A program made the position numbers and the translations under genes. The notes below the pieces were generated by a model. The model was not told the origin of the DNA and made no database searches. It saw nothing but the letters and a program-made list of their open reading frames with translations. A stretch of DNA of 64,000 bases from Candidatus Parcubacteria bacterium (GTDB taxonomy: Bacteria; Patescibacteriota; Minisyncoccia; JACPXH01), in assembly GCA_016196625.1 (NCBI GenBank), contig JACPXH010000007.1, positions 86,461-150,460 on the forward strand, read 5' to 3'. Shown one piece after another: positions 23,860 to 52,315 of this stretch; the stretch's first letter is position 1; the number at the start of each line of letters is the position of its first letter.

Positions 23860-24299
23860 GGTTTTTTTGAGAGGACGCTTGCTCCGTTAAACCCCGAAGG
23901 GATTTGTTCGGGGTGTAGGTGAACGAATTTCGTAGCCATGTGTTTTGTTCGTGTTTTCCATTGAGGCCGGTCGCCGCCACTCCCTTAGCGATCGTTCGCT
24001 CGTCCAGCGACTCGCAATCAAGGAATGCTCCGGGGCGGCGCACTCGGCCTCGCGTCCCTCGATACGACTCGGGACAAGCTCGGTCGGCGCCGCCCGTTCG
24101 GAGCCAAGCAGTTGGCTCCTCACCCTCACCACCTGCCGAGCACTCACGCGGACGCGGTGAGTGCTCGGACCGTGCCAGGTGATTGCGGATGTCGCTTCGG
24201 GAGCGACGGCGACCGGCCTGAAGGCATATTTTCCTTCCATGCCGTTGCCGTGCGTACGTCCCTAGTTCCAATCAAAAGTTCTCCACCTATAATAAGGGG

Positions 24300-25775: not shown

Positions 25776-26273
25776 CTACCCTACCTCGTCAAACTCGATT
25801 CGAAGCGGCCACGCTTGGGTGACCGTTCGGGTGCGTCCCGTGGTACCAACTCGCGATGTTGTCTCGGTGAGCTTGCTGACCAAGGTGAGTTTCCAGGTAG
25901 CGTCGCCACCGGTGCCGAAGACAATCCCTTTGTCACGCAGAGCCCGCGCAGCTTCTCTGATAGCCGCGAGCGCGGGTTCAGTCGTCTTGCTCCGCGCACC
26001 GATCCCGAGTTGCACGGTGTAGTCGAACCACCTTAGTCCTTCAGCGTCCATTTTTCCTTCCGGCCCAGCCCTGAAGTGCTGGAGGTTTTCACGCACGAGC
26101 GGAGGCAAATGCGGTTCGTCTATGGGGTGGACGACGTCCTGCCAGAAAGAGGGAAGTTGCAGGTAGCAGGGATCGATGATCGCCAGCGTGCCCGAGTCTA
26201 CGCTTACCTCACCGATGTCCATCCGTTCTTCCCAGGAGCGGGAGTCAACGACGGTCGGTCGCCTCTTACCCAT
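25776..26273 (-). CDS. hypothetical protein (165 aa)
   Basis: GGAGGAAACCCG-ATG start; terminator hairpin ccccaggcgggc/gcccgcctgggg at 25706-25733. Confidence 0.5.
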   Translation of the reverse strand: MGKRRPTVVDSRSWEERMDIGEVSVDSGTLAIIDPCYLQLPSFWQDVVHPIDEPHLPPLVRENLQHFRAGPEGKMDAEGLRWFDYTVQLGIGARSKTTEPALAAIREAARALRDKGIVFGTGGDATWKLTLVSKLTETTSRVGTTGRTRTVTQAWPLRIEFDEVG

Positions 26274-26491
26274 CGGGTTTCCTCCATATGACGGGTTGGG
26301 TTGGCTTGTTTCAAGGGTACTTGGACCTATTTCGTCCGATTGAATAACTGTACTAGATTACCCTATATTAGTCAAGTTTATCCATCTAAAGCTTAAGGGG
26401 TGGATGCATCCGATCGGTGCTGTTGCGGATAAAGGTTTTTTCTGCTATCGTTACTTTTGAACTTTGAGTTTTGCCTTTTGAGTTTTCTGTC

Positions 26492-26740
26492 ATGGGAACC
26501 CCCACCCAAAAACACACCAAATCCCGTCGCGACAAGCGGCGGTTCCAATTGCGCCTTTCGCATCAGCAGCTCTCGACCTGTCCCAAGTGCGGCCGGCCGA
26601 GGCTTGGGCACACGGCATGTTTATACTGTGGCACGTACAAGGGTCGGGAGGTGGTGGACGTTTTGAAACGGCTGTCGAAGAAAGAGAAAAAGGCCCGGGC
26701 AAAGGAGCTGGCGGCGAAAGAACCGGCAGCTGCGAAATAA
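26492..26740 (+). CDS. rpmF: 50S ribosomal protein L32
   Basis: MGTPTQKHTKSRRDKRR...CPKCG...CLYCGTYKG. Confidence 0.85.
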   Translation: MGTPTQKHTKSRRDKRRFQLRLSHQQLSTCPKCGRPRLGHTACLYCGTYKGREVVDVLKRLSKKEKKARAKELAAKEPAAAK

Positions 26741-26925
26741 CAAATGCCAAAGCTCAAATGTCAAATCAAGTTCAAAATGACGCCGCGCGTCATCCTGAGC
26801 GCAGCGAAGGATCTTGAGATCCTTCGGTCGTCCGCCGACTGGCGGACTCCCCCAGGATGACAATCGAGTTGTCACTTTGAGTTTTGGGTTTGATTTAAAA
26901 TTTGGATTTTGACATTTGACATTCC
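26741..26925. repeat. palindromic AT-rich repeat, family A copy (MITE-like), rpmF-nusB spacer
   Basis: caaatgccaaagctcaaatgtcaaatcaag...gtcactttgagttttgggtttgattt...gacatttgacattcc with nested GC hairpins in centre. Confidence 0.7.
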
Positions 26926-26929
26926 CGTT

Positions 26930-27421
26930 ATGGCTTCCCGTCACCTCTCGCGATCAATCGCCATGCAGTCCCTCTATGAGTGGGATTTTGCCGGCATGGA
27001 CGATGCGAAGCTTGAAGAGGTCGTAAATCGCAATATTCAGGAGTTTGCGCCGGGGCTTGATGATGCAAGCTTCATTTGGGAGTTGGTCAAAAATACGCTT
27101 CAGCGTCGGGCCACCATTGATAAAATCATCGAGAAGACCGCACCCGAATGGCCCATTGACCAAATTACCATGGTGGATCGTAACATCCTTCGTCTTGGCA
27201 TCTACGAACTGCTCTACGGCAATCGGGCCGAGGTGCCGCCGAAGGTGGCGATAAACGAGGCCATTGAGATCGCCAAAACTTTCGGCGGCGAATCTTCCGG
27301 CAAGTTTGTGAATGGAGTCCTCGGCACCATCTATCGCGAGATCGGAGAGCCGGATAAAGATGCGCCGAGGCGCGGAGAAAAGAAGGTAGCCTCTCGCGCC
27401 GAAGAGAAAACCCCGCAATAA
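26930..27421 (+). CDS. nusB: transcription antitermination protein NusB
   Basis: [14 protein letters not shown]...[23 protein letters not shown]...[22 protein letters not shown]; start chosen after the repeat. Confidence 0.85.
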
Positions 27422-27424
27422 GTA

Positions 27425-27585
27425 CCACATAATACTCAACCCTAATCCGAAGCTCGAAATCCGAAACAATATCCAAATTTCAAAACCCAATACTCAAACC
27501 GCGATTTGAATCATTGGAGCTTGTGATTTGGGATTTATTCGAAATTCGGTATTTGAGTTTCTGGTTTGAGAGCTGGGTCGGTTAA
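27425..27585. repeat. divergent AT-rich partially palindromic repeat (related to family A), nusB-rnc spacer
   Basis: ccgaaacaatatccaaatttcaaaacccaatactcaaacc...ggtatttgagtttctggtttgagag. Confidence 0.4.
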
Positions 27586-27590
27586 TCCTC

Positions 27591-28280
27591 GTGGCTTTTC
27601 TCGAGAAGTTGGAACCAAAACTTGGCGTCGCTTTTCAGAATCAAGACCTGCTTCAGCAGGCCTTTGTGCATCGTTCGTACCTGAACGAAAATCCGGGTTT
27701 CCGTCTCGACCAGAACGAAAGGCTGGAATTTTTGGGTGACGCAGTTTTGGAGCTTGTCGTAACCGAAGCGCTCTACGCCCAATTTCCGGAAAAACCGGAG
27801 GGGGAACTCACCAACCTGCGGGCGGCGTTGGTCAACGCCAATATGCTGGCTGAAGTGGCGCGCGGTCTTGATTTCAACGACCACTTGCTTCTGTCGCGCG
27901 GCGAGGCCAAGGACGAGGGTCGCGCTCGACAGTACATCCTGGCGAATGCCTTTGAAGCGGTAATGGGCGCCTTATATCTTGATCAAGGGTACGAGGCGGC
28001 GCGCGGTTTCGTGGAGCGCGTGCTACTCACGCACTTGGCGCACATCGTGGAAAAGCAGCTCTACAAAGATCCCAAGAGCCGTTTCCAAGAGGCCGCACAG
28101 GAGAAGGCCGGCATTACCCCGACGTACGAAGTCTTAGAGGAATGGGGTCCGGATCATGCCAAGCATTTCGTGGTGGGCGTGTTTATCGGCCGGGAGCTGG
28201 TTGCGAAAGGCGATGGGCCGTCGAAACAGGCAGGCGAAGAAGCGGCGGCGAGGGCGGGGCTGGAAGTGAAGGGGTGGTAG
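27591..28280 (+). CDS. rnc: ribonuclease III (GTG start)
   Basis: ERLEFLGDAVLELVV signature, C-terminal dsRBD. Confidence 0.9.
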   Translation: MAFLEKLEPKLGVAFQNQDLLQQAFVHRSYLNENPGFRLDQNERLEFLGDAVLELVVTEALYAQFPEKPEGELTNLRAALVNANMLAEVARGLDFNDHLLLSRGEAKDEGRARQYILANAFEAVMGALYLDQGYEAARGFVERVLLTHLAHIVEKQLYKDPKSRFQEAAQEKAGITPTYEVLEEWGPDHAKHFVVGVFIGRELVAKGDGPSKQAGEEAAARAGLEVKGW

Positions 28281-28282
28281 GC

Positions 28283-28410
28283 CGCTTCGCGGAAGTCCAA
28301 ATACCAAAGCTCAAATGACAAATCAAATCCAAAGCCCAAAGCCGTTTTTGACATTTGGATTTTGAGCTTGATTTGAACTTTGGATTTTGTCATTTGGGTT
28401 TTTGGGCAGA
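28283..28410. repeat. palindromic repeat family A copy, rnc-rpsP spacer
   Basis: gccgcttcgcggaagtccaaataccaaagctcaaatgacaaatcaaatccaaag...ctttggattttgtcatttgggtttttgg. Confidence 0.7.
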
Positions 28411-28455
28411 GATTTGATTTCTTCCAAGAGTTTCTGTACCATCGACACAGTTGCT

Positions 28456-28821
28456 ATGTTAACGATTCGTCTCCAGCGTGTTGGACGCAAGAACACCCCT
28501 CTTTTCCGGGTGGTGGCTACGGATTCCAAAAACCCGCCCAAGGGCAAGTTTTTAGAGGTGGTGGGTTCGTATAATCCGAAGACCAAGGCAATAAATTTAA
28601 AGTCTGACCGAGTTACTCATTATTTGGCTCATGGCGCAACCTGTTCAGATACGGTTTGGAATTTGTTTGTGCGCGAGGGCGTGGTACCGGGATTGAAGCG
28701 GCCGTTCAAATCCAGCCGTCCACAGTCTGCGGTTGCAGCGGATGCGCCCGCGCCGGTGACGGTTGGTGTCGGAGCCGAGCCCGAAGCGGCTGAAGCGGAC
28801 GGCTCAACCGGGCAGGGGTAA
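28456..28821 (+). CDS. rpsP: 30S ribosomal protein S16 with A/P-rich C-terminal tail
   Basis: MLTIRLQRVGRKNTPLFRVVATDSKNPPKGKFLEVVGSYNPKTK. Confidence 0.9.
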   Translation: MLTIRLQRVGRKNTPLFRVVATDSKNPPKGKFLEVVGSYNPKTKAINLKSDRVTHYLAHGATCSDTVWNLFVREGVVPGLKRPFKSSRPQSAVAADAPAPVTVGVGAEPEAAEADGSTGQG

Positions 28822-28969
28822 GTTTCAAGAGGGGTTGATTTTGGGGCGAGGAGGTGCTACTCTTTTTTCATACCAGTGAAGCCTGTTCTGTCCGGGCCTG
28901 ATCGGGCAAGAAAGACAACGATCAGAAAGGTCGGCTGGGACGGTAGAATGATTTGAGCAGTTTTTCAGT

Positions 28970-29353
28970 ATGGCAAAAGCATCAGAGCCGGATCTCGCGT
29001 TTGTTGAGTACGTGGTTAAGGCCGTCGTTGACAACCCGGACGCGGTTGAGGTGAACCGGAAAGTTGACGAGATGGGCGTGCTCATCACGCTTAAGGTCCA
29101 TCGTGACGATATGGGTCAGCTGATTGGCCGGCAGGGTTCAACCGCTCGGTCTCTCCGGACGCTCTTGCGAATTGTGGGCGCGAAGCACAACGCGCGCGTC
29201 AATCTCAAGATCGAGGAGCCCGAAGGCGGTCGCATGGTGCGTGAACCGAGTGCTTCCATGGGTCGCGGCGAGGGTCGCAGCGAGGAAGGCGTAAGCCGCG
29301 GCAACGAGGCCACGCGCAACTTCGACGAGGCGGTGGACGATTTGAGGCTGTAA
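28970..29353 (+). CDS. KH-domain RNA-binding protein (UPF0109/YlqC-like) with C-terminal extension
   Basis: FVEYVVKAVVDNPDAVEV...VLITLKVHRDDMGQLIGRQGSTARSLRTLL. Confidence 0.75.
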   Translation: MAKASEPDLAFVEYVVKAVVDNPDAVEVNRKVDEMGVLITLKVHRDDMGQLIGRQGSTARSLRTLLRIVGAKHNARVNLKIEEPEGGRMVREPSASMGRGEGRSEEGVSRGNEATRNFDEAVDDLRL

Positions 29354-29626
29354 AAGGAAAGCTTCCTCCTGCGCGTCCCTCATATTCTTCGAGCGAGCTC
29401 GCCAGCTGGCGGGCGAGTCGAGAAGCGTTCTGATTGGACGGACGGTTCTCGACCCTAGTCCGATCCGCGGACGGTTTTAGGACAAGCTCGAAGAATAACA
29501 GGGTTGAATTTCTGCTGACGTAAAACGAAAAACCGCGTCACACCCCTCGACTGCGCCTCGCCTAGCGGGGTTACGCTCGGGGCAAACGGTGTGGCGCGGT
29601 TCGCGTTCCGGCTGGCAGCGATTTCA

Positions 29627-29652
29627 ATTCTAATGTATTAATACATTAGAAT
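29627..29652. promoter_or_regulatory. perfect 26-bp AT-rich palindrome in 550-bp non-coding spacer upstream of trmD
   Basis: attctaatgtattaatacattagaat. Confidence 0.4.
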
Positions 29653-29900
29653 GTTTGGGGGTTGCGGTAAAAAGTTTTTCGACATCATCACAATTTTCTT
29701 CCGATTTTGTTCGCGAGCAACGCGAGCGATTACAAAATCGAGGACCCCGCGTTTATTTTGCCATTCAGTGTGGTTGCGGCGTGCGTGGCCGAATAGGCCC
29801 GTCCCTCTGTGGGCGAAGCGCGCCGCTGTGTTAGCAAGGCGAGGATTGGTAGTGGCTGACGCGGTAAATATAGTGCAAAATAAGCGCGCGGGCCGAACTT

Positions 29901-30742: not shown

Positions 30743-31748
30743 AGAGCGTGGAGATCGCCTATGTAGATTATCTCGGACAACCTTGGCCTCAGAGCGTATC
30801 GACGTTCGGGCACCGTACGACCGCGAAGGCGTCTAGCCGAGATCCACAAGTAAATAGTTCGGTGAATCTCGAAGATGGACTTCTTCGCGGTTGTATTTTC
30901 CGAGACGCTGACTGACGCGGACAATTGAGATTGCTTCGCTGTGCTCGCAATGACGAATGCAGCCGGTGTCCCTTGAAAATTGAATAGGTAAGGTAAGTAA
31001 AAATCCAGTTATTCCTTGTTGTCCCGATCTATGGGTGTTCGGCAGCGCGCTTGGCGCGATGGCCGGACATCTTTTGAGAGTTTGATCCTAGCTCAGGATG
31101 AACGCTGGCGGCGTGGATAAGCAATGCAAGTCGTGCGAGGCCTTTTCTGAAGGAGTTGCGATTACATCAAGACGACAGATGAAATGGTCGAGCGGCGAAC
31201 GGCTTAGTAACACGTAGGAATCTGCCCCGGAGTCGGGCATAACTCGTCGAAAGGCGGGCTAATACCCGATGGTATCAGCATTGCAATTTTGATCTTTAGA
31301 ACCTTCTAGTGTCGACAAGCGCCTAGATGCTGGAAGTTGCGGCGAAGGGAAGGGAGCGCAGACTCCCTTGGTGGCGCGCACAAGTACCCCTTGACCGGTT
31401 AACCCGGGGGCCCTTCGCCTACTAATTTCTAGAGTTCAAAATTGCGATGCTGATTAAAGATGCAAATCACTCCGGGAGGAGCCTGCGGGCTATCAGCTTG
31501 TTGGCGGGGTAACGGCCCACCAAGGCTATGACGGCTAGGGGGTGTGAGAGCATGGCCCCCAAGATGGGTACTGAGACACGGACCTGACACCTACGGGTGG
31601 CTGCAGGCGAGAATATTCGGCAATGGGCGAAAGCCTGACCGAGCGACGCCGCGTGAAGGATGAAGCCCTGCGGGGTGTAAACTTCTTTTGACCGGGAGGA
31701 AGCCGCAAGGCTGACTGTACCGGTAGAATAAGGGGCTGCTAACCTCGT

Positions 31749-32101
31749 GCCAGCCCCGCACCAAACATTTGGTGGCGGGGCGACCAATGTTAGCAATACA
31801 AAACGAATCTGGTATTACCGAAAGCGCGACCTGGAGTCGCAAGGCTCCTTGAATAACTCGGCTCATATGCTGGGAACTCTGTGAGTGGCTGCAATCGTTC
31901 AACGATGCTCCAGAGCAATCAGCAGGGAAGTCGCCCCGCCCTTGGCGAGGTTGACCCCTCAGAGACTGATCCCTATCGGCGAAGTGCCGAGACGGGTGAG
32001 AACGGATGCGTGTGTATCTGTTCAGACGCCGAGCTCCGCCAATTGGCGGATGGTGGGATAGTCCATGTTCCGAAGCCAAATCCAAATGTTTTGGTAACGG
32101 G
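31749..32101 (+). mobile_element. 16S group I intron 1 (353 nt, ORF-less) near E. coli position ~516
   Basis: splits gtgccagcagc(a)gcggtaatac; contains ggctcatatgctggg and tcagagactgatc (R-like) blocks; ends with G. Confidence 0.65.
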
Positions 32102-32373
32102 GCCAGCAGCAGCGGTAATACGAGGGCCCCGAGCGTTATCCGGAATCACTGGGCGTAAAGAGTCTGTAGGGGGTCTGGTTAGTCGGGTGTGAAATTTCCG
32201 CGCTCAACGCGGAGCCCGCATCCGAAACGGCCAGACTCGAGGACGTGAGAGGCGAGTGGAATGCACGGTGTAGGGGTGAAATCCGTTGATATCGTGCAGA
32301 ACACCGAAGGCGAAGGCAGCTCGCTGGCGCGTTCCTGACCCTGAGAGACGAAAGCGTGGGGAGTGAATGGGAT

Positions 32374-33349
32374 CGGATTTGGTCCCCTCGTGCGGCGACG
32401 CACGAGCGCAAATCTGGCTATATGCTGGAACATCCGAGTATCTCACCGTACTGCGTTCAGGGCAGTAACAATCTGTGAGTGCGGATTATCAGCAGGAAAC
32501 CGTGGTAAAATGATACTATGGGATCCTCAGAGACTATACGCCGGATACCTCAAATGAATAAGGAACTCGCCATTCTGTTAGGACTTCTCTACACAGATGG
32601 TTGTGTTTCCCCAAAAGGACAAAGTTGGAGAATTTATTTCGCCGTAAAATCGCAAGTGTTAGTCAACCTTTTTCGGGATTGCATGGTAGATGTTTTCGCC
32701 CTCGAGTCTAATCGAGTGCGGATTGGCGTTACGCAAGATGGTTTAACGAGAGCCATCGTGAACTCGAAAGAGGTGGGCAACTGGTTGGTAGGCAGGTTTG
32801 GCACATTCCGAACGTTAAAGTTCGCGAATGGCCGATTGCCTCCAGCAAGACTGCCGGTGTCGCTGTTGAAAAGCACGCGACATGTAGCAGATTTCTTGCG
32901 AATTGCGTTTAGCTGTGATGGAGGCGTGAGTTTCTATTCTGCAAAACGCGACGGCAGAAATGGCGGCACCCGATGGTTAATTCGAACAGTCTTTCTCGCT
33001 TGCACACATCCGCAGTTGCGGAGAGATTATCTGAAGTTACTTTCTCAACTTGGCATCCGAGTACGAGAAGTCGCCAAAGATGGCAAGCTGAAGATGGAAA
33101 CAGAACGAGATATTCGTCTGTTTCAAGAGCGGATCGGTTTTACCGCCGGTGTTCGAGTAACGGGCAATTCCAAATTCTGGAATGGCTACGAAAAAAATGA
33201 AGTCTTGCGACTTCTGATCGCGTCGTATGGCCGGCCATCAAAGATCTACCAACTGCCTAAATTTAATGAGGTAATGATATAGTCCGAACTTCATGGCGAC
33301 ATGAAGAGACAAGTAAGACTGGGTAAATCTTGTCCGTTGTAACAACAAG
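32374..33349 (+). mobile_element. 16S group I intron 2 (976 nt) encoding LAGLIDADG endonuclease, at ~E. coli 788/789
   Basis: exon1 ends ...gggaU; exon2 tagatacccc; ggctatatgctggaacatccg, tcagagactatacgcc (R element); terminal G. Confidence 0.7.
32518..33282 (+). CDS. LAGLIDADG homing endonuclease (double-motif) inside 16S intron 2
   Basis: LAILLGLLYTDGCVS and FLRIAFSCDGGVS. Confidence 0.8.
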   Translation: MGSSETIRRIPQMNKELAILLGLLYTDGCVSPKGQSWRIYFAVKSQVLVNLFRDCMVDVFALESNRVRIGVTQDGLTRAIVNSKEVGNWLVGRFGTFRTLKFANGRLPPARLPVSLLKSTRHVADFLRIAFSCDGGVSFYSAKRDGRNGGTRWLIRTVFLACTHPQLRRDYLKLLSQLGIRVREVAKDGKLKMETERDIRLFQERIGFTAGVRVTGNSKFWNGYEKNEVLRLLIASYGRPSKIYQLPKFNEVMI

Positions 33350-33450
33350 TAGATACCCCAGTAATCCACGCCCTAAACGATGAGGACTTGTTGTGTAGAG
33401 TATCGACCCTCTACGTGGCGAAGCTAACGCGTTAAGTCCTCCGCCTGGGA

Positions 33451-33482
<32 letters not shown>

Positions 33483-33493
33483 AGACGGGAGTT

Positions 33494-33528
<35 letters not shown>

Positions 33529-33624
33529 GTAAGCGAGGAACCTTACCAGGGCTTGACATGTTCGAGTAAGGCCGCCGAAAGGTGGTCCCTCCCACAAGGA
33601 CCCGAACACAGGTGCTGCATGGCT

Positions 33625-34429
33625 ACATCCGGATACGGATGGATGGCCGGTCCGGTGGCAACATCGGATAACAATAACCAGCCCAAAACGGTGGAGCCCT
33701 CCTGGTTTTCGGAGTAAAATGGAAGCCAGTGGGTAATACCGTGGGAAGCAAGTTTATATTCAAGACAGCCGAAGACTACTACGCACTGGGTCTTTGGCTG
33801 GCGGATGGGTACTGGCGTTCAAGCTCAGTCGGCTTAACTTCGGTTGACTCTCGATTGATAGAGCGGTTTGTTCGGTTTTTACGGCGGGCGGCTCCGAGCC
33901 ATCCGCTGAAGTACCGAACGTATCACCCACTCGATGGTCGAGGGAAACGTAGACGTGTGGCGACACAAGTGTACGTAAACAGTCGGGCGTTGACCCGAAT
34001 GTTCACTGCCACGAAAACCGGAGTATTGTTCGTCCCATCGCGAAACGTTCCTGCGTATTTGGCAGGGCGGATAGATGGTGATGGGCACGTAGACGCCAAA
34101 CATCGATCGGGCATTCGGATCGCGTATGGGAACGCGTTCGATGCTCGGAGGGATCGTCGGTTGTTCGGCGCAGCCAATGTGAGCTTGTACCGGTATTCAG
34201 CTGCGAGGACGATGGTCCTTTACTTGAGGAAGCATTATCGAGAGCGCATCGAACCCGCGGTTCGAAAATTCTCGATGAAACTTGCCCCGTAGAGACTGAA
34301 TTCCGAATCAAAGCGGAATGAGAATTGTCGATCTTCGACGATTCAGACGGTTGGCATCCAGCCCCAGTTTTTCAAACTGGAGCTGGATGAAGGTATAGTC
34401 CATGCTCGTGGAAACACGGGAATATCATG
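33625..34429 (+). mobile_element. 16S group I intron 3 (805 nt) encoding LAGLIDADG endonuclease, after GCATGGCU (~E. coli 1057)
   Basis: exon junction gcatggct|gtcgtcagc; gaaggtatagtccatgc (S element); ORF begins inside conserved ataccgtgggaag block. Confidence 0.7.
33729..34292 (+). CDS. LAGLIDADG homing endonuclease inside 16S intron 3
   Basis: YALGLWLADGYW and YLAGRIDGDGHVD. Confidence 0.8.
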   Translation: MGNTVGSKFIFKTAEDYYALGLWLADGYWRSSSVGLTSVDSRLIERFVRFLRRAAPSHPLKYRTYHPLDGRGKRRRVATQVYVNSRALTRMFTATKTGVLFVPSRNVPAYLAGRIDGDGHVDAKHRSGIRIAYGNAFDARRDRRLFGAANVSLYRYSAARTMVLYLRKHYRERIEPAVRKFSMKLAP

Positions 34430-34528
34430 GTCGTCAGCTTGTGGCGTGAGTTGCTCCGTTCAGTCGGGTAACAAGCGCAACCCCTATGTGCTGTTACAGG
34501 TGTCAGCGCAAACTGCCTGCTTCAAGCA

Positions 34529-34564
<36 letters not shown>

Positions 34565-35144
34565 CTTTGATGCCCTGGGCGACACACGTGCTACAATGGC
34601 CGGTACAATGGGACGCCAACCCGTAAGGGGGAGCAAATCCCACCAAAACCGGTCTCAGTCCGGATTGAGGTCTGCAACCCGACCTCATGAAGCTGGAATC
34701 GCTAGTAATCGCGGATCAGCCACGCCGCGGTGAATACGTTCCCGAACTTTGTACTCACCGCCCGTCAGGCCAGTGAAGGCGGTAATGCCGGAAATCTGGG
34801 TTTGTCCCGGATGAAGGCAGGATCGCTGACAAGGGCTAAGTCGTAACAAGGCATCGGTAGCGGAAGCTGTCGATGGATCATCTCCTTTCTAGGGAGTTCT
34901 TACCTTCTACGGTTAAGAACCGCTAGTAAGGTCAAGTGGTCGGTGCTGCGTTTGCTGCCACAAGCACGAATGCGGCGGGAGTTGGCCGATGTCCTCAACC
35001 ATCGGCTGCTCGGCCCCGAAGCGTCATTCGGGCGGTCGGGACAACGAGGAAAAACTGGAATAGCAAACCGCGCGCCCTCTTGAGGGGGCGCGCGGTTGTG
35101 TTTTATGATGCGAGGGCGCTTGGATTGCGGCGTGCAGCTAAAGC

Positions 35145-35216
35145 GGGCGCGTAGTTCATTGGTAGAACGCCTTTCTGATAAAAAGGAGGTAGTAGGTTCG
35201 ATTCCTACCGCGCCCA
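35145..35216 (+). tRNA. tRNA-Ile (anticodon GAT), no encoded CCA
   Basis: gggcgcg acceptor / cgcgccc; anticodon loop ctGATaa; T-loop gtagg-ttcgatt-cctac. Confidence 0.9.
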
Positions 35217-35257
35217 CAGCAGATCTATTGCTGCATATTCGGACAGGAAAGTCGCTT

Positions 35258-36226
35258 ATGATAAAAGAGAAGATTAATAAGCCCAACATCCGAGATACTA
35301 AGCCGGGATACTCGGAGGGATATTATGATATTTTTGAACATTTGGAGGATTATGCTGCTAAGATTTTTGCCGCTGCAGACATTCATCCGCAAGAGACGAA
35401 AGTAATGGAGGGTGAAACTGGAGTTATCCTTAACGTATTTGATGGGCAACAGCGAGCCATCGTCAAGATTAATCCTTTCCATGGCGATCTCCTGACCAGC
35501 GACTACTTTTATAACAAGCTCGAGGGGTCTGGTGTCCCAGTTCCAAGCGTCTTATTTTTTGACGATTCAAGGCAAGTGATACCCTACGACTTCCAAGTTT
35601 TAGAGTATTTAGAGGGTGTAGATATACGGAGCATTCCGGCAAAACTTCACAGACAGGCGGGCACGCTCGTTGGCGAAGCGCTGCAGAAAATTCATAGCAT
35701 CAACGTTGAAGGATTCGGCTGGCCTTTATCAGGAGGCGGATGGGGCGCCACATCATGGCTGGATGCATTGCGAAAGAATTACTTTGATAGTTCTTTGGCA
35801 AAGAAACACGAAGTTTTTTCTACTGAAGAGATACGGCAGATAGAACGGATCACCTTCTTTAATGAAAAGCTCAATAGTATTGCACCTCATTTAATACATT
35901 CTGACGTAGGTCATGGGAATAGCTTATACAGGCTTGAAGACAATCAGTTGTTCCTCGTAGGATTCATAGATCCAGGCGGCATTATTGGGGGCGATCCGAT
36001 GTTTGATGTGCCGCTGAGCGTTGACGCTGAAGATGATTTTGAGAAAGGGATAGGGGAGGTATACACAGGGCGGAGATCTCTTTCTCCGGAAGAAGAGTAT
36101 CGTCTCAACCACCTCAACTTAGCCAGACGCTTTTGGTCAACATGCTGGCATTATGCGACCGGGAGAGACCATAAGCCGGTCAAAGACAAAACCGTTGTAC
36201 TACTCAAGAATCTGACCACGAGGTAG
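35258..36226 (+). CDS. aminoglycoside/choline-kinase-like phosphotransferase (APH family), low-GC gene directly 3' of tRNA-Ile
   Basis: Brenner motif LIHSDVGHGN, FIDPGG...GDPMFD; ORF-track N-terminal extension overlaps the tRNA and is rejected. Confidence 0.7.
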   Translation: MIKEKINKPNIRDTKPGYSEGYYDIFEHLEDYAAKIFAAADIHPQETKVMEGETGVILNVFDGQQRAIVKINPFHGDLLTSDYFYNKLEGSGVPVPSVLFFDDSRQVIPYDFQVLEYLEGVDIRSIPAKLHRQAGTLVGEALQKIHSINVEGFGWPLSGGGWGATSWLDALRKNYFDSSLAKKHEVFSTEEIRQIERITFFNEKLNSIAPHLIHSDVGHGNSLYRLEDNQLFLVGFIDPGGIIGGDPMFDVPLSVDAEDDFEKGIGEVYTGRRSLSPEEEYRLNHLNLARRFWSTCWHYATGRDHKPVKDKTVVLLKNLTTR

Positions 36227-36927
36227 TGGGTTTGATTCATATCGTGTCCACACCCATGAATAAATCCTGGCTCATTGCAATCGGAATCGTCGCGGCAATC
36301 GGCGTTGCTGTTTTCTTCGTCTCGATGCGGCGCGCGCCAGAACCGCCGGCGCCACCGTCGGGGCAACCGACGAATTCGCAGCCGTCTAACCAAACTCCCG
36401 CACCCGTGGACGCCGAAAGCGAAAAACCGCCGCGCGCATTCCCCGGCGTTCTTCCCGCCGAAGAAGTAGAAAACAAAATCGCGGTCATCAAAACGCCCAA
36501 GGGCGAAATTCGTTTTGAGCTTCTCGCTGCAGAGGCGCCTAAGACGACAAGCAACTTTGTGTATCTTGCAAAACAGGGCTACTTCAACGGCCTGAATTTC
36601 CATCGCGTGGAGTCGTGGGTGATTCAAGGCGGGGATCCGAACTGTGGTTCGACAGGCTCACCACCTTCGGCAGCTGGGCCGTGCGGCACCGGTGGGCCGG
36701 GTTATCGGTTTGAAGATGAGCCGGTGCGCTTGGAATACAAAACCGGCATCGTCGCCATGGCCAACGCCGGGTCCAACACTAACGGCTCGCAGTTTTTCAT
36801 CTTGAAACAGGACACGTCGCTCCCGCCCAACTACACTATTTTTGGGCGTGTGACGGCCGGGCAAGACGTAGTGGTAAAGATCGCTGCGGGAGACACGATG
36901 GAGAAAGTCGAGATTCTGTCGAAGTAA
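36226..36927 (+). CDS. membrane-anchored cyclophilin-type peptidyl-prolyl isomerase (start may be 36256)
   Basis: TM + Pro-rich linker, then FHRVESWVIQGGDP...IVAMANAGSNTNGSQFFI. Confidence 0.8.
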   Translation: MGLIHIVSTPMNKSWLIAIGIVAAIGVAVFFVSMRRAPEPPAPPSGQPTNSQPSNQTPAPVDAESEKPPRAFPGVLPAEEVENKIAVIKTPKGEIRFELLAAEAPKTTSNFVYLAKQGYFNGLNFHRVESWVIQGGDPNCGSTGSPPSAAGPCGTGGPGYRFEDEPVRLEYKTGIVAMANAGSNTNGSQFFILKQDTSLPPNYTIFGRVTAGQDVVVKIAAGDTMEKVEILSK

Positions 36928-36943
36928 TCCTGTATCATCAGGT

Positions 36944-37495
36944 ATGCGCCGACCCACGAAAATTCTGCTGACAACCCAGATGATCGCGGTGGGTGCCGCG
37001 GGGATGCTAGTGCCGATTTATGCGATCTACGTGGAAAAGATTGGCGGAGACATTCTCGCTGCGGCAGGCGCGTGGACGGTGTTTTCAATCGTGAGTGGGG
37101 CGCTCATGATGTTATTCGGTCGGCTCACCGATCGGGTGCGGGAACCAGAGTATTTCATCGTTGCCGGGTTCTTTGCGGCCGCGGTTGGTTACGTGGGGTA
37201 TCTCTTCGTGCAGAGCCCCACGCATCTGTTCATCGTGCAGATGGTGCTTGGCGTGTCGGTCGCGCTTATGACGCCCGCGCATGACGCGCTCTACACCGAG
37301 CACCTCGACGGCGGGCGGTTTGCGTCGGAGTGGGGGTTTTGGGAAGGCATGTGGAACATTACCGAGGCTGCGGCCGCGTTGGCTGGTGGGCTTGTGGTCG
37401 TATGGTTTGGGTTCAAAGCGCTGTTTATGATTATGGCGCTCTTGGCGTTTTCGACTGGTGTCTACGTGTGTGTCTTGCCGCGCCGGGTGCTGTGA
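36944..37495 (+). CDS. MFS-transporter C-terminal-half-like membrane protein (possible gene fragment)
   Basis: 6 predicted TM segments; only 183 aa. Confidence 0.45.
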   Translation: MRRPTKILLTTQMIAVGAAGMLVPIYAIYVEKIGGDILAAAGAWTVFSIVSGALMMLFGRLTDRVREPEYFIVAGFFAAAVGYVGYLFVQSPTHLFIVQMVLGVSVALMTPAHDALYTEHLDGGRFASEWGFWEGMWNITEAAAALAGGLVVVWFGFKALFMIMALLAFSTGVYVCVLPRRVL

Positions 37496-37585
37496 CCGAT
37501 TTGGCGCGTCAAGAAAAGAGAACGCCCGTCCCTCGATACACTAGGGACGGGCGTTGAATCTTGCGGAAGAAGGAACAGCGGGCGG

Positions 37586-38182
37586 CTAGACAGCGGCGAG
37601 AGATAGCGCCTTGAGCGCCGTTGGGACGATGATCCGGTGGCTCGGCACCAGATCATCCGGCAGGAGATCGGCCGGGTAAAAGGCACCGTTGGCCGGCGTG
37701 CCCTCGATGCGCGCAAGGTGAATGAGACAGCAGAACACTCCGCGCGTCGGTTCGGGGATGAGGCGGACGTCCACGAGCTGCGGCCAGCCGATGAATTTGG
37801 CCGGTGCAAGCTCCTTCGTCTCGAGCCGCCTGAACGCGGCCTCGAGATCCTCGCGCGCGATCCGCGCCTGAATGTCGTCGCCCAGTGGGATAGCGTCGGG
37901 CGCCTGGATGACGGTCCCGGGCGAGTGCAGCAATCCCGGAAATGCTTCGCTCGGCTCTTCCTCCTTCGTGGGCCGGCGCATGAGCAGCACTTGCAGGTCG
38001 CCGTGCGCCGGGCCGAAGCGATAGATCACAGTCTCGACCGCCGCTTTCGGCAGGAGCAGCGAGAGCGCCTCGAAGGCGTCCGGCTGCCACGGTTGGGTTA
38101 CGCCTAACCGCTTGAGCCAGTGCGTGCAGGTATCCCAGTCATCCTTGGTCGCGAGCGGCAGAACCCGTACCTGTTCGGTCAT
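37586..38182 (-). CDS. hypothetical protein, paralog A
   Basis: shares TQPW..FEAL...RRxT....HSPGT(V/I) pattern with adjacent ORF. Confidence 0.5.
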   Translation of the reverse strand: MTEQVRVLPLATKDDWDTCTHWLKRLGVTQPWQPDAFEALSLLLPKAAVETVIYRFGPAHGDLQVLLMRRPTKEEEPSEAFPGLLHSPGTVIQAPDAIPLGDDIQARIAREDLEAAFRRLETKELAPAKFIGWPQLVDVRLIPEPTRGVFCCLIHLARIEGTPANGAFYPADLLPDDLVPSHRIIVPTALKALSLAAV

Positions 38183-38212
38183 CCCATCCCCCCTTGCGTG
38201 GGCGTTGCTTGC

Positions 38213-38770
38213 TTACCGGCCAGCGAATCGATTCAGGCGGGGTAGTCCCGTGAGCGCGATTTCAATCAGCGAACGGTGGTGATCCATGAGTGGTTCTGGC
38301 AACGGTTTGTCGACCGGAAAAAATTGTCCGTGGTTCGGCATACCGATAACGTAGGCTATGTGGATCAGGCGTAGCTCGGTGCCGCGTCGGATCCGGTTCA
38401 GCTCAAGTTGTGTAAAGATCGGTTTGCTGATAGTGGCTGGCGCGAGTTCACGTTCCATCAACCGTTTTAGCGCATCGGTGAGCGTCTTGTCGGTGGCCCG
38501 CAATATTGTGCCGGGTGAGTGCCACTCGTTGGGCCAGTAGATGTCATTCGTCGCTCGGCGGGCCAAGAATACGCACCAGCCCTCGGGACGGTACTGGAAG
38601 CACACCACTTCGTAGGCCGCGCATACTACGCACCGTGCCAGAGCCTCGAACAGCTCGAGCGTCCAAGGCTGGGTGTGCTCCAATTTGCCGCACAGGCGAA
38701 TAAAGGTTCCGACTTCACGACGGGTCAGTTGGCCTTCTCGTAATAGCTGCGTCCCCATTGCCCTTGCCAT
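38213..38770 (-). CDS. hypothetical protein, paralog B
   Basis: tandem paralog of 37586-38182. Confidence 0.5.
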   Translation of the reverse strand: MARAMGTQLLREGQLTRREVGTFIRLCGKLEHTQPWTLELFEALARCVVCAAYEVVCFQYRPEGWCVFLARRATNDIYWPNEWHSPGTILRATDKTLTDALKRLMERELAPATISKPIFTQLELNRIRRGTELRLIHIAYVIGMPNHGQFFPVDKPLPEPLMDHHRSLIEIALTGLPRLNRFAGR

Positions 38771-38963
38771 CCGTTCCCTCCCTCCGTATGGGTGGCTGTT
38801 TGTCGCGCTGCCAACGCTGGTCTATTTTATATACCGGATCTATTGGATGAAGTCAACTGGTTGGTGTTATGTCGTCGGCGGCTCCGCCCGGGCCGCTGAT
38901 TCCTTTTTGTGCTTGGTGGATGTTCTTTTCAATCCGTACGCGCTGTGGTATACATAAAGCGGC

Positions 38964-39878
38964 ATGAAGTATCTCATCACCGGCGGCCCGAGGGGTTGGA
39001 TTGCCCAAAAGTTCGCGGCGTTTTTGAGTTCGCCGGGCGGCGAAGCCGAGCTGTCGGCCGTTAACATTGCGGACGCGACGGCAATCGAGGCCGAGCTCGA
39101 CCGGGCGAAGCCAGAGGTCCTCATCAATACTGCCGGCAAAACCGGCGGACCAACTGTGAGTCCCTCGGGCCAACCCGGGCGCAACATTGATTGGTGCGAA
39201 GACCACAAAGTTGAGACGCTCACCTCGAACGTGGTTGGGCCGGTGGAACTCGTGAAAGCCTGCAAGGCACGGAACATCAAGCTCGTGCACCTTTCAAGCG
39301 GCTGCATCTTTCAGGGTCGGGGGCACCTCGCGAGTGGTTTCCGTGAGGACGACGCGGTCGCCCCGCCGAGTTTTTACTCATGGACCAAATACTGGGCCGA
39401 TCAGTATTTGATGCAAGCCTGGCCAGAAGGCACGCTCATTTTGCGGCTGCGCATGCCCACGGACGCCGAACCCGGGCCGCGCAACCTCATCACCAAGCTT
39501 GCGGGTTATCCCAAGATCATTGACGTGGAGAATTCACTCACCGTGATCCCCGATCTTTTGGCGGCAACGAAGCAGCTGATTGCGCAGGGTGCGGTGGGGA
39601 TTTACCACGTGACCAATCCGGGGTCGGTCACGCATCGCGAGATTATGGGGCTCTATCAGAAGTTGGTTGATCCCGGGCACACCTTCGAGTTCATTTCAGA
39701 GGCAGAGCTCTACAGCCTTGGGCTTGCGAGTACCGGCAGATCCAACTGCATTTTAAACGTGGACAAACTTTTACGCGCGGGCGTGCAGATGCCGCCCATC
39801 AAGGAACGGATCCGTGAAGTAATGGCCGAGTATGCGGCGAATCTCAAACGCAGTCAGAGCGTTCCGGCTCAAGCGTAG
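38964..39878 (+). CDS. NAD(P)-dependent epimerase/reductase of extended SDR family (dTDP-4-dehydrorhamnose reductase-like)
   Basis: MKYLITGGPRGWIAQ Rossmann start; SSGCIF...YSWTKYWAD catalytic Y..K. Confidence 0.75.
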   Translation: MKYLITGGPRGWIAQKFAAFLSSPGGEAELSAVNIADATAIEAELDRAKPEVLINTAGKTGGPTVSPSGQPGRNIDWCEDHKVETLTSNVVGPVELVKACKARNIKLVHLSSGCIFQGRGHLASGFREDDAVAPPSFYSWTKYWADQYLMQAWPEGTLILRLRMPTDAEPGPRNLITKLAGYPKIIDVENSLTVIPDLLAATKQLIAQGAVGIYHVTNPGSVTHREIMGLYQKLVDPGHTFEFISEAELYSLGLASTGRSNCILNVDKLLRAGVQMPPIKERIREVMAEYAANLKRSQSVPAQA

Positions 39879-39971
39879 CCACGGTTCTGTGGTTTTGTGC
39901 ACGAAAGCGCCACCTTGCTCAAGGTGGTACTTCTGTTTTTGGCGTGAGCGTGGTATAACCTTGATTTAAGG

Positions 39972-40018
39972 GCTATAGCTTAGTGGCAGAGCACCCGCTT
40001 TGTTCACCCCGTACCAAA
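39972..40018 (+). pseudogene. truncated tRNA-Ala-like 5' half
   Basis: gggctatagcttagtggcagagcacccgctttg resembles first 33 nt of downstream tRNA-Ala; no T-arm/acceptor 3' strand. Confidence 0.45.
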
Positions 40019-40022
40019 ACTT

Positions 40023-40094
40023 GGGCCAGTAGTTTAGTGGTAGAACACCGCTTTTGCACAGCGGAGATCGCGGGTTCGATTCCCGCCTGGTCCA
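40023..40094 (+). tRNA. tRNA-Ala (anticodon TGC)
   Basis: gggccag/ctggtcc acceptor, anticodon loop ttTGCac, T-loop gcggg-ttcgatt-cccgc. Confidence 0.9.
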
Positions 40095-40137
40095 CAATTC
40101 AAAAAAGCATCACAGATATCCCTAATCTTATATATTC

Positions 40138-40914
40138 ATGGACACTCTCGATGACAAAGTAAATAAATCCGCGCTTGAAGCCCAAGTGAAAGATATGTAC
40201 CGGCAAGTGGCCCAGAATCCAAGGGGTGAGTACCATTTTGAAATGGGGCGAGATTTGGCCGAGAAGCTCGGCTATCCATCCGCAGACCTCGATGCCATCC
40301 CCGCAGAGGCGGTCGAATCATTTGCCGGTGTGGGCTACCACTTCGATCTGGCGGCGCTCAAGCCGGGCGAGCACGCGCTGGACGTAGGCAGCGGTTCAGG
40401 CACCGATGTCTTCTTTGCCGCACGCAAGGTTGGGCCAGCGGGGCACGTGGTGGGAGTGGACATGACGGACGAGCAGCTCGCAAAAGCCGAAGGGTTGCGT
40501 CAGCGTTATGGGTTTGAAAACGTATCGTTCGTGAAGGGCTATATTGAGCAGATTCCGGTGCCGGACGGCGGGTTTGACGTGGCTGTTTCCAATGGCGTCA
40601 TTAATCTTTCGGCCGAAAAGGTAAGGGTTGTGCAGGAGGTGAGTCGGGCGCTGAAAGTCGGCGGACGGCTGGCCATCTCTGACATTATGGCCTCGCACAA
40701 CTTGAGCGAGCGAATCAAGGCGAACGCGGAGCTGTGGGCGGCGTGCATTGGGGGCGCGGTTACTGAGCAAGAGCTCCGCCAATACCTTGAGCATGCTCAC
40801 TTGCAGTTGGTGGAGTTTCGCGAGAACCCGCAGTATAAGTTTTTGACTCATCCCGATGTCATGGAGAAATACGGCATCAAGAGCGTCTCGCTCTTGGCGA
40901 TCAAGACGGCATGA
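40138..40914 (+). CDS. class I SAM-dependent methyltransferase (ArsM/UbiE-like)
   Basis: LDVGSGSGTDV motif I, VSNGVINL. Confidence 0.75.
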   Translation: MDTLDDKVNKSALEAQVKDMYRQVAQNPRGEYHFEMGRDLAEKLGYPSADLDAIPAEAVESFAGVGYHFDLAALKPGEHALDVGSGSGTDVFFAARKVGPAGHVVGVDMTDEQLAKAEGLRQRYGFENVSFVKGYIEQIPVPDGGFDVAVSNGVINLSAEKVRVVQEVSRALKVGGRLAISDIMASHNLSERIKANAELWAACIGGAVTEQELRQYLEHAHLQLVEFRENPQYKFLTHPDVMEKYGIKSVSLLAIKTA

Positions 40915-41441
40915 TCAAAACGCCGTATGATCGAGTGATTGAGAAGTTCCTTGATCGCGAGGTTCAACCGGCGAGCCGTATCATTGACGTGGGATGCGGT
41001 ACTGGCTGGACGGCGCTCTTCTTGGCGCGCCGAAAGCCGGGTTCCCAAATCGTGGGCATTGATATTGACACGCTTACCGTCCACCGAGCGAATGCGCTAT
41101 TCCGTCGGGCGAGGCGCGAGAAGTTGGTGCAGTGCCATCGTTGCGGCGTTGAGCAGCTTCGCGTACGCTTCGGCACGCAGATGTTTGACTGCGCCATCAC
41201 GAGCCATACGCTGCACCATTTCGAGCGACCCGCAGCCGCTCTGCGGCAGATTCGGGCCGTGCTCAAGCGCGGGGGTCGTTTGCTGCTGGTCGAACTTTCG
41301 CCCCGCTACGGTGAAGCGCTCGACGATTGCCCCCGCTACTCGCTTGTCAAAATCAAGGAGTTCGTGCGGCGGGCTGGTTTTCGACGGGTAGGCGGAGCGG
41401 AGCGCGCGCCGGGTGTTGTGTTGGTTCGGGCGAGCCGATAG
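40911..41441 (+). CDS. class I SAM-dependent methyltransferase
   Basis: IIDVGCGTGWTA, GGRLLLVEL; 4-bp overlap with upstream MTase. Confidence 0.7.
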   Translation: MIKTPYDRVIEKFLDREVQPASRIIDVGCGTGWTALFLARRKPGSQIVGIDIDTLTVHRANALFRRARREKLVQCHRCGVEQLRVRFGTQMFDCAITSHTLHHFERPAAALRQIRAVLKRGGRLLLVELSPRYGEALDDCPRYSLVKIKEFVRRAGFRRVGGAERAPGVVLVRASR

Positions 41442-41704
41442 CCCAAGCTGTGGATAACGTTCGCGCAGCAAGCGATTGAGTGTGATAGAATTTGACTAGC
41501 CAGACTTTTCAATGGTTGATGGCCCGGCGCGGTTTTCTGCTCCAACGCATGCGGCAGCGCCGGAGAGCTACCCACCATTTAACAACTTAACCGTGATTGT
41601 CTTTCCTGCGCTGACTGGTCGATGTCAGCGTGTACGCATGGCTCCGCCATGCGGCAGGGGGAAGCAGAAGGCGGGGCTTTCCGCCCCGCTAAAAGGAATT
41701 TCCT

Positions 41705-42403
41705 ATGTATTCAGACATTGTTACGCTGCCCAATTGGGCCACCACCGTTGTTGATTCGCTCACGAGCCTATGGGCGCAGTTCATCGGTTTTCTGCCGGTG
41801 TTCTTGTCGGCTGTAATCGTATTCCTCATCGGTTGGCTTGTGGCAGCGGTTTTGGGCAAAGTTGTGCATCAGGTGGTCAAGGGTTTGCGCATTGACCAGT
41901 TGTTCGAGCAGATGGGCTTGGATAAGGCGCTCGCGCGAGGAGGGCTCAACTTGGATACGGGCCGGTTTGTGGGCGAGGTGGTGAAGTGGTTTGTCGTCGT
42001 GGCGTTCCTGCTGGCGGCCTCTGACATCCTTCAGCTGCGCGATTTCAACGACTTCTTGAAGAGCGTGTTGGGGTACATTCCGAACATCGTAGTGGCAGTG
42101 CTCATCCTGTTGGCCGGAGCATTGCTGGCCAACTTTCTTGAGCGCACGGTGGAAGCGAGCGTGGCGGCAGCCGAGCTCAAAAGCGGCAAGTTTCTTGGTG
42201 TGGTTACGCGCTGGTCGGTATGGATTTTTGCGATCTTAGCAGCCCTCGTGCAGCTCAACGTCGCGCGCCAATTGCTCACGACACTGTTTACCGGCGTCAT
42301 CGGGGCCCTCGCACTGGCCGCGGGCTTGGCCTTTGGTTTGGGCGGCAAGGATTTCGCCTCTGATTGGCTTGAGAAAATAAAGAAAGATGTAACAGAGCGG
42401 TAG
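41705..42403 (+). CDS. membrane protein with duplicated conserved-TM-helix repeat (mechanosensitive-channel-like)
   Basis: two internal repeats each TM + VVKxxxVVAFLLAA / LAALVQLNVA. Confidence 0.6.
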   Translation: MYSDIVTLPNWATTVVDSLTSLWAQFIGFLPVFLSAVIVFLIGWLVAAVLGKVVHQVVKGLRIDQLFEQMGLDKALARGGLNLDTGRFVGEVVKWFVVVAFLLAASDILQLRDFNDFLKSVLGYIPNIVVAVLILLAGALLANFLERTVEASVAAAELKSGKFLGVVTRWSVWIFAILAALVQLNVARQLLTTLFTGVIGALALAAGLAFGLGGKDFASDWLEKIKKDVTER

Positions 42404-42485
42404 CAGTCGGCAAGGGATATCGGGTTGTCGGCCGGCGGGGCGAGCGCCTCGCCGGCTTTGCTTTTTTCATGTGCAAAACAGGGTA

Positions 42486-43285: not shown

Positions 43286-43330
43286 CATTCCCTTAGTAGC
43301 GGCGAGCGAACCGGGAAAAGCCCAAACCAG

Positions 43331-43694: not shown

Positions 43695-43731
<37 letters not shown>

Positions 43732-52312: not shown

Positions 52313-52315
52313 GGC

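Follow-up and report, generated by a model that had tools for sequence, protein, structure and literature searches.

The 64,000-nt stretch analysed here (the window; contig JACPXH010000007.1 of a Candidatus Parcubacteria bacterium, positions 86,461 to 150,460) contains the genes rpmF, nusB, rnc, rpsP and khpA, all five of them co-directional on the + strand. The spacers from rpmF to rpsP are occupied by long imperfect palindromes, designated E1, E2 and E3. These palindromes, their sequence family and their relation to RNase III, the product of rnc, are the subject of this report. The features of the locus are as follows.

26492-26740, + strand: rpmF, ribosomal protein L32 (Pfam Ribosomal_L32p, E = 1e-18)
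26736-26925, + strand: E1, family-A palindrome in the rpmF-nusB spacer (nhmmer E = 1e-10)
26779-26875, + strand: nested GC-rich core in the loop of E1, of the GTCATCCTGAGCG...CGAAGGATC type, a second repeat family
26930-27421, + strand: nusB (start 26930)
~27424-27582, + strand: E2, diverged heptad palindrome in the nusB-rnc spacer (AAACAATATC subtype)
27591-28280, + strand: rnc, RNase III with catalytic domain and double-stranded RNA-binding domain (dsRBD) (Pfam Ribonucleas_3_3 4e-38, dsrm 1e-11)
28283-28405, + strand: E3, family-A palindrome in the rnc-rpsP spacer (nhmmer E = 4e-10)
28456-28821, + strand: rpsP, ribosomal protein S16 (Pfam Ribosomal_S16, E = 4.5e-18)
28970-29353, + strand: khpA (Pfam)

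The spacers are 189 nt (rpmF-nusB), 169 nt (nusB-rnc) and 175 nt (rnc-rpsP) long. The RNase III gene is intact, as both the catalytic domain and the dsRBD were found. Public loci and contigs compared with the window are given L-numbers (L001, L140 and so on), and the junctions in them are called U (upstream of rpmF), A (rpmF-nusB), B (nusB-rnc) and C (downstream of rnc). The closest loci by Rnc protein are Parcubacteria- and Sungiibacteriota-type metagenome-assembled genomes, and the window genome belongs to Patescibacteria (candidate phyla radiation, CPR). A first-pass annotation of this DNA had described long imperfect palindromes in the three spacers, and all three are present at the positions it gave. 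It had also placed the true start of nusB at 26930; more than 70 homologues from the compared loci align from residue 1 of this start, and the Pfam NusB domain begins at residue 7. Such repeats can pass for extensions of open reading frames (ORFs), for example from an upstream TTG start of nusB.

Palindromes were called with a gapless centre-extension scan calibrated on shuffled sequence, which gave 13 matches in the window and 0-1 in the shuffles. A window scan with RNALfold was too noisy in GC-rich sequence and a reverse-strand self-blastn was uninterpretable, as palindromes align through their loops; both were set aside. The outer heptad arms of E1 are at 26736-26778 and 26876-26925, and the palindrome scan delimits them as 26736-26777 and 26882-26923 (42 nt, 74% complementary). 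E1 folds with a minimum free energy (MFE) of -73.3 kcal/mol (z = -5.6), and 0 of 200 shuffles fold equally well. The nested GC hairpin core that had been noticed in this palindrome is confirmed: gtcatcctg (26789) pairs with caggatgac (26855), and gaaggatcttgagatccttc lies at 26806-26825. Cores of the same type are nested in family-A loops also in spacer B of L001, spacer B of L042, L088, L173 and L175, which suggests that hairpin loops are hot spots of insertion or that the core and family A form a composite element.

E2 is one 54-bp interrupted hairpin with weak statistics (z = -2.0). It shares AAACAATATC with spacers B and C of L046 and does not contain the family-A 17-mer CAAAGCTCAAATGWCAA. 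E3 has 44-nt arms, which are 70% complementary (z = -2.85), and a small GC hairpin (ccgcttcgcgg) on its 5' side resembles the clamps on copies in the 23S rRNA gene. No Rfam family matched the spacers at the gathering score, and at E <= 1 there were only chance matches to plant miRNA precursors.

The 17-mer CAAAGCTCAAATGWCAA occurs exactly five times in the window, each time on the + strand: once in E1, once in E3 and once in each of three insertions in the 23S rRNA gene. When up to three mismatches are allowed, 12 matches are found against 0.27 expected. The arms are tandem 7-nt repeats, with an identity of 0.63 at lag 7 and 0.57 at lag 14, compared with 0.32 in shuffled arms. Left arms consist of CAAATG/CAAAGC-type heptads and right arms of their TTTG-type complement. 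A family profile for nhmmer was built from 126 metagenome copies, and its consensus reaches well past the seed (AATGACAAATGTCAAAGCTCAAATGTCAAATCAAATCCAAA). E1, E3 and the three 23S insertions (R1 to R3) match the profile at E = 1e-12 to 3e-9, and the rest of the 64 kb has no match. The copies in the rRNA region, which include a variant (R0), are as follows.

42812-42916, + strand: R0, variant heptad hairpin with the same GC clamps, just 5' of the 23S (palindrome scan)
43789-43892, + strand: R1, family-A hairpin in the helix 25 loop of the 23S, an intervening-sequence (IVS) site (nhmmer E = 8e-10)
44574-44730, + strand: R2, family-A hairpin in the helix 45 loop of the 23S, an IVS site (nhmmer E = 1e-12)
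45268-45366, + strand: R3, family-A hairpin at the tip of a variable hairpin, helix 63 (large-subunit (LSU) model ~1752-1775, cmscan)

The relation of E1 and E3 to the 23S insertions, as proposed in the first-pass annotation, is borne out: their arms are near-identical to those of R1 to R3 (helices 25, 45 and 63), and they form one sequence family. The assignment of the spacer palindromes to family A stands for E1 and E3, which carry the 17-mer and match the profile; E2 is a diverged variant and has no 17-mer. The insertion points in the cmscan alignment are LSU model 583/584 for R1, whose hairpin has 44 bp including 8 G-U pairs, and 1214-1219 for R2. In other bacteria, IVSs that RNase III excises are classically located in helices 25 and 45 (PMC11270868, PMC4990558). 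For CPR 23S genes, short insertions without an ORF have been reported at these sites and ascribed to IVSs of the RNase III type (PMC11270868). The 23S of L119 also bears a family-A element at helix 63, and that element is longer. The element in the nusB-rnc spacer of L140 shares 87% identity with R2 over 116 nt.

As RNA, R0 to R3 form continuous hairpins of 36-66 bp with 4-11 G-U pairs. The transcribed strand is 9.5-31 kcal/mol more stable than the complement, and shaping for the RNA strand is clear in the 23S copies. R0 is diverged and has no 17-mer, and its + strand RNA is 9.5 kcal/mol more stable. The units of R0 are TAATGAC/GAATGTC, and it lies 36 nt before the aligned part of the 23S begins, at the place expected for the 23S processing stem.

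A public metagenome scan for the 17-mer found it in at least 120 contigs with a GC content of 0.31-0.54, with 129 matches in them. Among the matches listed, 117 of 129 (~90%) are intergenic, the orientation relative to co-directional flanking genes is 32:32 and thus unbiased, and nearly all show a CAAA-rich arm followed by a TTTG-rich arm. The neighbours of the family are very diverse, and many have functions atypical of CPR genomes. The family looks more like a dispersed, selfish-like repeat than a purpose-built regulator. The only public short-read contig carrying this Rnc (L205, 1.5 kb, equal to 26897-28388) is 100% identical to the window, and both of its ends fall within TTTGGATTTT, in the right arms of E1 and E3, indicating that the repeat breaks assemblies.

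Longer relatives of these elements carry a gene. The intervening-sequence protein of 23S rRNA (IVP) is a four-helix bundle of the family PF05635 (S23p). An IVP ORF sits between the two arms in L118, L127, L183, L146, L100, L198, L201 and L204, of which L201 (an 886-kb chromosome) and L204 were independently fetched as homologues and show the same arm-IVP-arm layout. The left arm codes for the N-terminus of IVP (MTNFKAQMSNQAQNPNDKK), and the right arm comes after the stop codon. The arm-encoded N-terminus KAQMSNQAQNPNDKK is conserved in many of at least 7974 homologue clusters, and ORF-less hairpins, for example L109, still keep the 5' end of the IVP gene. Arms flanking the IVP ORFs in L118, L127 and L183 match E1, E3 and R1 to R3 with 89-100% identity over 23-55 nt (E down to 3e-15). 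In L118, the arm 3' of the IVP gene shares 90% identity with the right arm of E1 over 48 nt, in a region free of the seed, and 91% identity with R2 over 55 nt. A solo T-rich fragment of the right-arm type was observed in the 5' leader of rpmF (26455-26486, + strand; direct-repeat family D1/D3); over 18 nt it matches the right arm of the IVP element in L127 at 94%. No IVP gene was found in the window or in 80 rnc loci.

Because their arms match those that flank IVP ORFs, E1, E3 and R1 to R3 are miniature, ORF-less members of the IVS-type family, and E2 and R0 are diverged relatives. The features shared with miniature inverted-repeat transposable elements are multiple copies, dispersal, terminal inverted repeats and a related longer element that bears an ORF. 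PF05635 proteins are not known to be transposases.

The window family resembles the 23S IVSs of Salmonella, Leptospira, Coxiella and CPR in several respects. Terminal inverted arms make a long stem (42-44 nt arms in E1 and E3; 36-66 bp in R1 to R3), arms homologous to those in the window flank IVP ORFs in other contigs, and RNase III is the expected processing enzyme. R1 and R2 occupy the same sites, helix 25 and helix 45, whereas E1 to E3 do not. In Coxiella, the IVS lies in helix 45; its terminal stem of 28 bp is cut by RNase III, its loop contains an S23p ORF, and heptameric repeats stand in tandem ahead of this ORF (PMC4990558). Heptameric tandem repeats in an arm are common to both. Unlike the known 23S IVSs, three of the window copies lie in mRNA spacers, all window copies are without an ORF, and the arms are very A/T-rich heptad arrays; excision and 23S fragmentation are here only predicted. 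IVP ORFs within rRNA insertions of CPR have already been reported (PMC11270868). In the literature searched, nothing specific was found on heptad hairpins in Patescibacteria or on IVP elements outside rRNA.

Other dispersed palindromes are similar in part. The Correia elements of Neisseria (CREE/NEMIS) are likewise dispersed palindromes of ~100-150 bp, and their RNA hairpins are bound and cleaved by RNase III (PMC2649163). They are co-transcribed with neighbouring genes; for the window copies co-transcription would be expected from the gene arrangement. Correia elements are restricted to a single genus and have 26-bp terminal inverted repeats, an IHF site and a TA duplication; they have no copies in rRNA, and no form of them bears an ORF. 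The window family, by contrast, extends over many phyla, has arms made of heptads and includes a form with IVP. REP/REPIN sequences and Rickettsia palindromic elements (RPE) are also high-copy intergenic palindromes. Unlike REP/REPIN, the window family has no GTAG head and no RAYT gene. As with RPE, pieces occur in frame within genes (gatB in the window; a trxB-like ORF in L083), but here only the solo A-rich arm, never the whole palindrome, is found in ORFs. The heptanucleotide simple-sequence repeats of Beggiatoaceae and cyanobacteria (intergenic TAACTGA, PMC4679880) share the tandem 7-nt unit, the intergenic position and the variable copy number; they are direct-repeat arrays, whereas in the window an array and its complement form the two arms of a hairpin.

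The gatB gene of the window (12810-14480) has an in-frame insertion of 29 amino acids (ETNPNFQNANTGKSQITNHKSQTNSNLQN, 13146-13233) made of CAAA-rich 7-nt repeats; T. maritima GatB lacks it. It resembles a solo A-rich arm with repeats of the same style. The insert within the trxB-like ORF of L083 is similar.

No + strand terminator-like site was found between the genes in a scan of 26200-29000, and the sole promoter-like site of the cluster is upstream of rpmF. For these reasons, a single polycistronic rpmF-nusB-rnc transcript is plausible on sequence grounds. Copies that are transcribed would fold into A-U-rich hairpins of 40-65 bp, the type of substrate on which RNase III acts. The enzyme whose gene lies between E2 and E3 would excise the 23S copies, leaving a fragmented 23S rRNA, and would also cleave the polycistronic mRNA to either side of nusB and rnc. 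The analogy to IVSs (PMC4990558), to Correia elements (PMC2649163) and to the autoregulated rnc transcripts of E. coli and S. coelicolor (PMC10126417) makes it most likely that RNase III would cut the stems of E1 to E3 and thereby its own message. Such cutting would exert a negative feedback on rnc. Any feedback is considered a by-product and not the origin of the elements, because the copies behave as decaying members of a selfish family; it may be tolerated or secondarily exploited, and it might favour their retention near rnc. Our preferred reading, with a probability of roughly 55%, is that E1 to E3 are ORF-less miniature IVS-type copies, selfish in nature, which would be cut by RNase III when transcribed, with feedback as a by-product.

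The surroundings of rnc are enriched in such hairpins. The order rpmF-nusB-rnc is kept in nearly all of 80 Patescibacteria loci, with spacers ranging from overlap to ~270 nt. Spacers of at least 60 nt almost always contain one long hairpin with arms of 7-8-nt repeats, and the sequences are unrelated between lineages. A palindrome scoring at least 16 was observed in 10 of 59 junctions of type A, 18 of 76 of type B and 15 of 80 of type C; the remaining junctions gave 23 of 327. Heptad-periodic hairpins were found in 30 of ~274 U/A/B/C junctions and in 9 of 327 others (odds ratio 4.3, p = 5e-5), a comparison limited by crude gene calling at the control junctions, by the phylogenetic relatedness of the loci and by control genes of unknown expression level. 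At least 13 distinct, unrelated sequences are present among the heptad hairpins of spacer B. The hairpin is present in only ~20-25% of nusB-rnc junctions. Among the matches listed for family A in metagenomes, three of 129 adjoin rnc (in spacer B of L140 and L173, and downstream of rnc in L172), and ~0.2 would be expected if matches were spread evenly over ~1000 junctions per genome. The Rnc of L172 is only 38% identical to that of the window. Family-A copies are also found before rpmF (L145) and on both sides of rpsP (L155).

This enrichment could also be read as the mark of dedicated autoregulatory hairpins, rncO-like operators that set the levels of rnc and nusB, with the likeness to the 23S insertions due to shared optimisation for RNase III. 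Heptad hairpins are most often directly 5' of rnc (15 of 76 loci), unrelated sequences form hairpins at the same junctions, and family A stands beside rnc in three independent metagenome contigs, one of them with the 38%-identical Rnc. Autoregulation of RNase III through its own polycistronic transcript has precedent (Xu 2008, as cited in PMC10126417), with E. coli rncO and the cleavage of the S. coelicolor absB transcript as examples (PMC10126417). As in rncO and absB, a double-stranded RNA structure is predicted in the enzyme's own co-directional cluster, immediately upstream of rnc. However, the hairpins of rncO and absB are unique and locus-specific, with demonstrated cleavage, whereas those of the window are copies of a dispersed repeat with no compensatory evolution and with cleavage only predicted. 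The same family occurs in at least 120 unrelated contexts in random orientation, neither strand-specific wobble nor arm covariation was detected (see below), spacer B has been swapped for another subtype between the window and its close relative L001, and nusB and rnc overlap or abut in many relatives. The idea of dedicated regulatory hairpins is thus not upheld by the comparison, and we consider it unlikely.

Several observations weigh against the preferred reading of selfish IVS-type copies that RNase III would cut. The stems of E1 and E3 are 26-30% mismatched, which might lower cleavage. No target-site duplication was identified, although no systematic search was made, and the ends of the elements are fuzzy. 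About 40% of the relatives have almost no nusB-rnc spacer, the genes abutting or overlapping, so the nusB-rnc hairpin is dispensable. Strand and wobble tests were made on 54 hairpins from rpmF-nusB-rnc spacers of related loci. No excess of wobble pairs was detected in these spacer stems (G:U versus A:C mismatches 86 versus 75, p = 0.43), and no stability advantage of the + strand was seen among the 54 hairpins (29:22, p = 0.29). The MFE differences between the + and - strands are +8.4 kcal/mol for E1, -0.1 for E2 and -1.3 for E3. There was no covariation within elements, as the own right arm is the best partner of the left arm in only 2 of 42 members. In the right arm of E3, moreover, something besides pairing is constrained: together with the rpsP leader (28346-28455, compared with L001 4760-4879), it is ~98% identical to the close relative L001, and the arm is much more conserved than the left arm of E3.

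The spacer hairpins do not look selected as RNA structures. The mean complementarity of arms in the 42 members is 0.51 within elements and 0.47 between elements, and such weak pairing within elements is expected of copies derived from a master sequence that was itself an imperfect palindrome. The left arm of E1 (26741-26778) is more complementary to the right arm of E3 (28359-28396; 82%) than to the right arm of E1 (74%). On paper, nusB and rnc could therefore be enclosed by a long-range stem similar to an rRNA-processing stem.

These results would also suit inert selfish DNA, tolerated in spacers and at loop tips of rRNA, whose mRNA stems are poorly cut and have no effect on expression. The arm complementarity of only 70-74%, the z score of E2, the missing signal of RNA-level selection in the spacer copies, their dispersed and orientation-neutral distribution and the solo arms even in frame within genes all accord with it. 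RNase III needs roughly 20 bp of stem, however, and the predicted hairpins of the window copies, with 43-67 bp and MFE from -35 to -73 kcal/mol, are well above this. The 23S copies also show clear shaping for the RNA strand, and the non-random enrichment around rnc needs some explanation. Inert DNA is also judged improbable, about as much as dedicated regulation.

L001 is a close relative of the window genome, with Rnc 86% identical and coding DNA 76-83% identical. The first-pass annotation had named conservation of the spacer elements in related genomes as a check beforehand, and relatives do keep elements at the same spacers. Spacer C is 86% identical between the two, with a 6-nt indel in the left arm. 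In spacer A, the outer arms are conserved, including 30 of 30 nt before the nusB ATG, and the core is replaced. Spacer B contains a different subtype in each. The region 5' of rpsP is strongly constrained and is possibly a promoter or leader (TTGATT-N17-TACCAT).

The conservation of the E3 right arm with the rpsP leader and of the 30 nt before nusB, which exceeds that of the coding DNA, could indicate expression signals. The arms, especially the T-rich right arms, would then act as promoter, UP-element, 5' untranslated region or terminator, with the hairpin being secondary. TTGACA motifs are present in right arms, and E3 ends in GGGTTTTTGGG. Nevertheless, no + strand promoter- or terminator-like site was scored inside the elements, the TTGACA before nusB is too near the ATG for a -35 box, and the element is also present inside 23S rRNA, where a promoter or terminator would do harm. 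The terminator-like hairpins of this genome are short, GC-rich and perfect (9168-9205 and 50067-50104). Expression signals are accordingly a quite improbable explanation of the elements.

Related candidates for such signals were rejected. Intrinsic termination does not fit the stems, which are long, A-U-rich and mismatched, and no + strand terminator-like site was found in 26200-29000. Outward TTGACA -35 boxes in the right arms were dismissed, as the spacing to the nusB ATG is unfit for a promoter and the scan found none. The perfect GC-rich palindromes at 9168-9205 and 50067-50104 have stems of 19 bp and 17 bp, the second being directly 3' of the 5S rRNA gene, and they are probably the real terminators of the genome.

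The strong 7-nt periodicity could also mean that the repeat unit and not the hairpin is functional, as an array bound by a cold-shock-type OB-fold protein, by KhpA or by IVP itself. Arm sequence is conserved across distant contigs more than pairing is, khpA is two genes downstream, and CspB is described as binding one molecule per heptamer (PMC4679880). Yet mutational reasons make heptamers the commonest unit of simple-sequence repeats in prokaryotes (PMC4679880), and the unit sequences are wholly different between lineages. We regard protein-binding arrays as highly improbable. Terminator, promoter and protein-binding functions are all less likely than selfish IVS-type copies subject to RNase III. 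BoxA/NusB sites in the arms were also considered and discarded, as GCTCAAATG is unlike GCTCTTTAACAA, the BoxA consensus. The stem-loop arrays of TIGR-Tas systems, which are known in CPR, do not apply, as box C/D motifs, spacers and a Tas gene context are all absent.

Further palindromes that do not belong to family A were observed in the window. A third type of palindrome (ttcttcgagcgagctcgcc / ggcgggcgagtcgagaag, motif gctcgaagaata) is found in the khpA-trmD spacer (29354-29900, 546 nt), and this type also makes up the core of spacer A in L001 (L001 3195-3300). A heptad hairpin of another sequence family (GTTAGCT... / AGCTAAC x4) lies at 52312-52382, between the ORFs 51482-52312 and 52383-53498. 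GC-rich inverted repeats of 31 nt, 200 nt apart and unrelated to family A, are found at 23961-24222. In the 23S, a further insertion of 57 nt at ~43986-44043 (LSU model 687) is palindromic (43995-44048) and not of family A.

The rRNA operon (31075-50062) is composed of the 16S with a group I intron, tRNA-Ile, ~4.8 kb of ORFs, tRNA-Ala, ~2.8 kb of ORFs, and then the 23S and 5S. Besides the hairpin insertions, the 23S is split by a group I intron with an ORF. The 16S of the window obtains its best score against the archaeal small-subunit model.

IVSs have so far been treated as a peculiarity of 23S genes, of unknown origin. The same heptad-armed family is present in ordinary spacers, in ORF-bearing and miniature forms and in many uncultured lineages. 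Such a dispersed family gives IVSs a plausible source population, and the arm sequence is a simple handle for finding them. The clustering of hairpins at rnc in genome-reduced CPR is a directly testable case of feedback between an RNA-processing enzyme and a repeat dependent on it. A broader proposal, which is speculative and in our estimate rather unlikely, is that IVS-type heptad elements constitute one phylum-spanning class of mobile hairpins dependent on the RNase III of the host, in IVP-bearing and miniature forms, which would be kept in rRNA by excision and would accumulate near rnc, where a self-limiting feedback from their cleavage would couple RNase III dosage to element load. If this is true, a selfish RNA element and the enzyme that processes it would meet at a conserved interface in the spacers around rnc, and mobility at the RNA level would possibly be aided by the Avd-like IVP protein.

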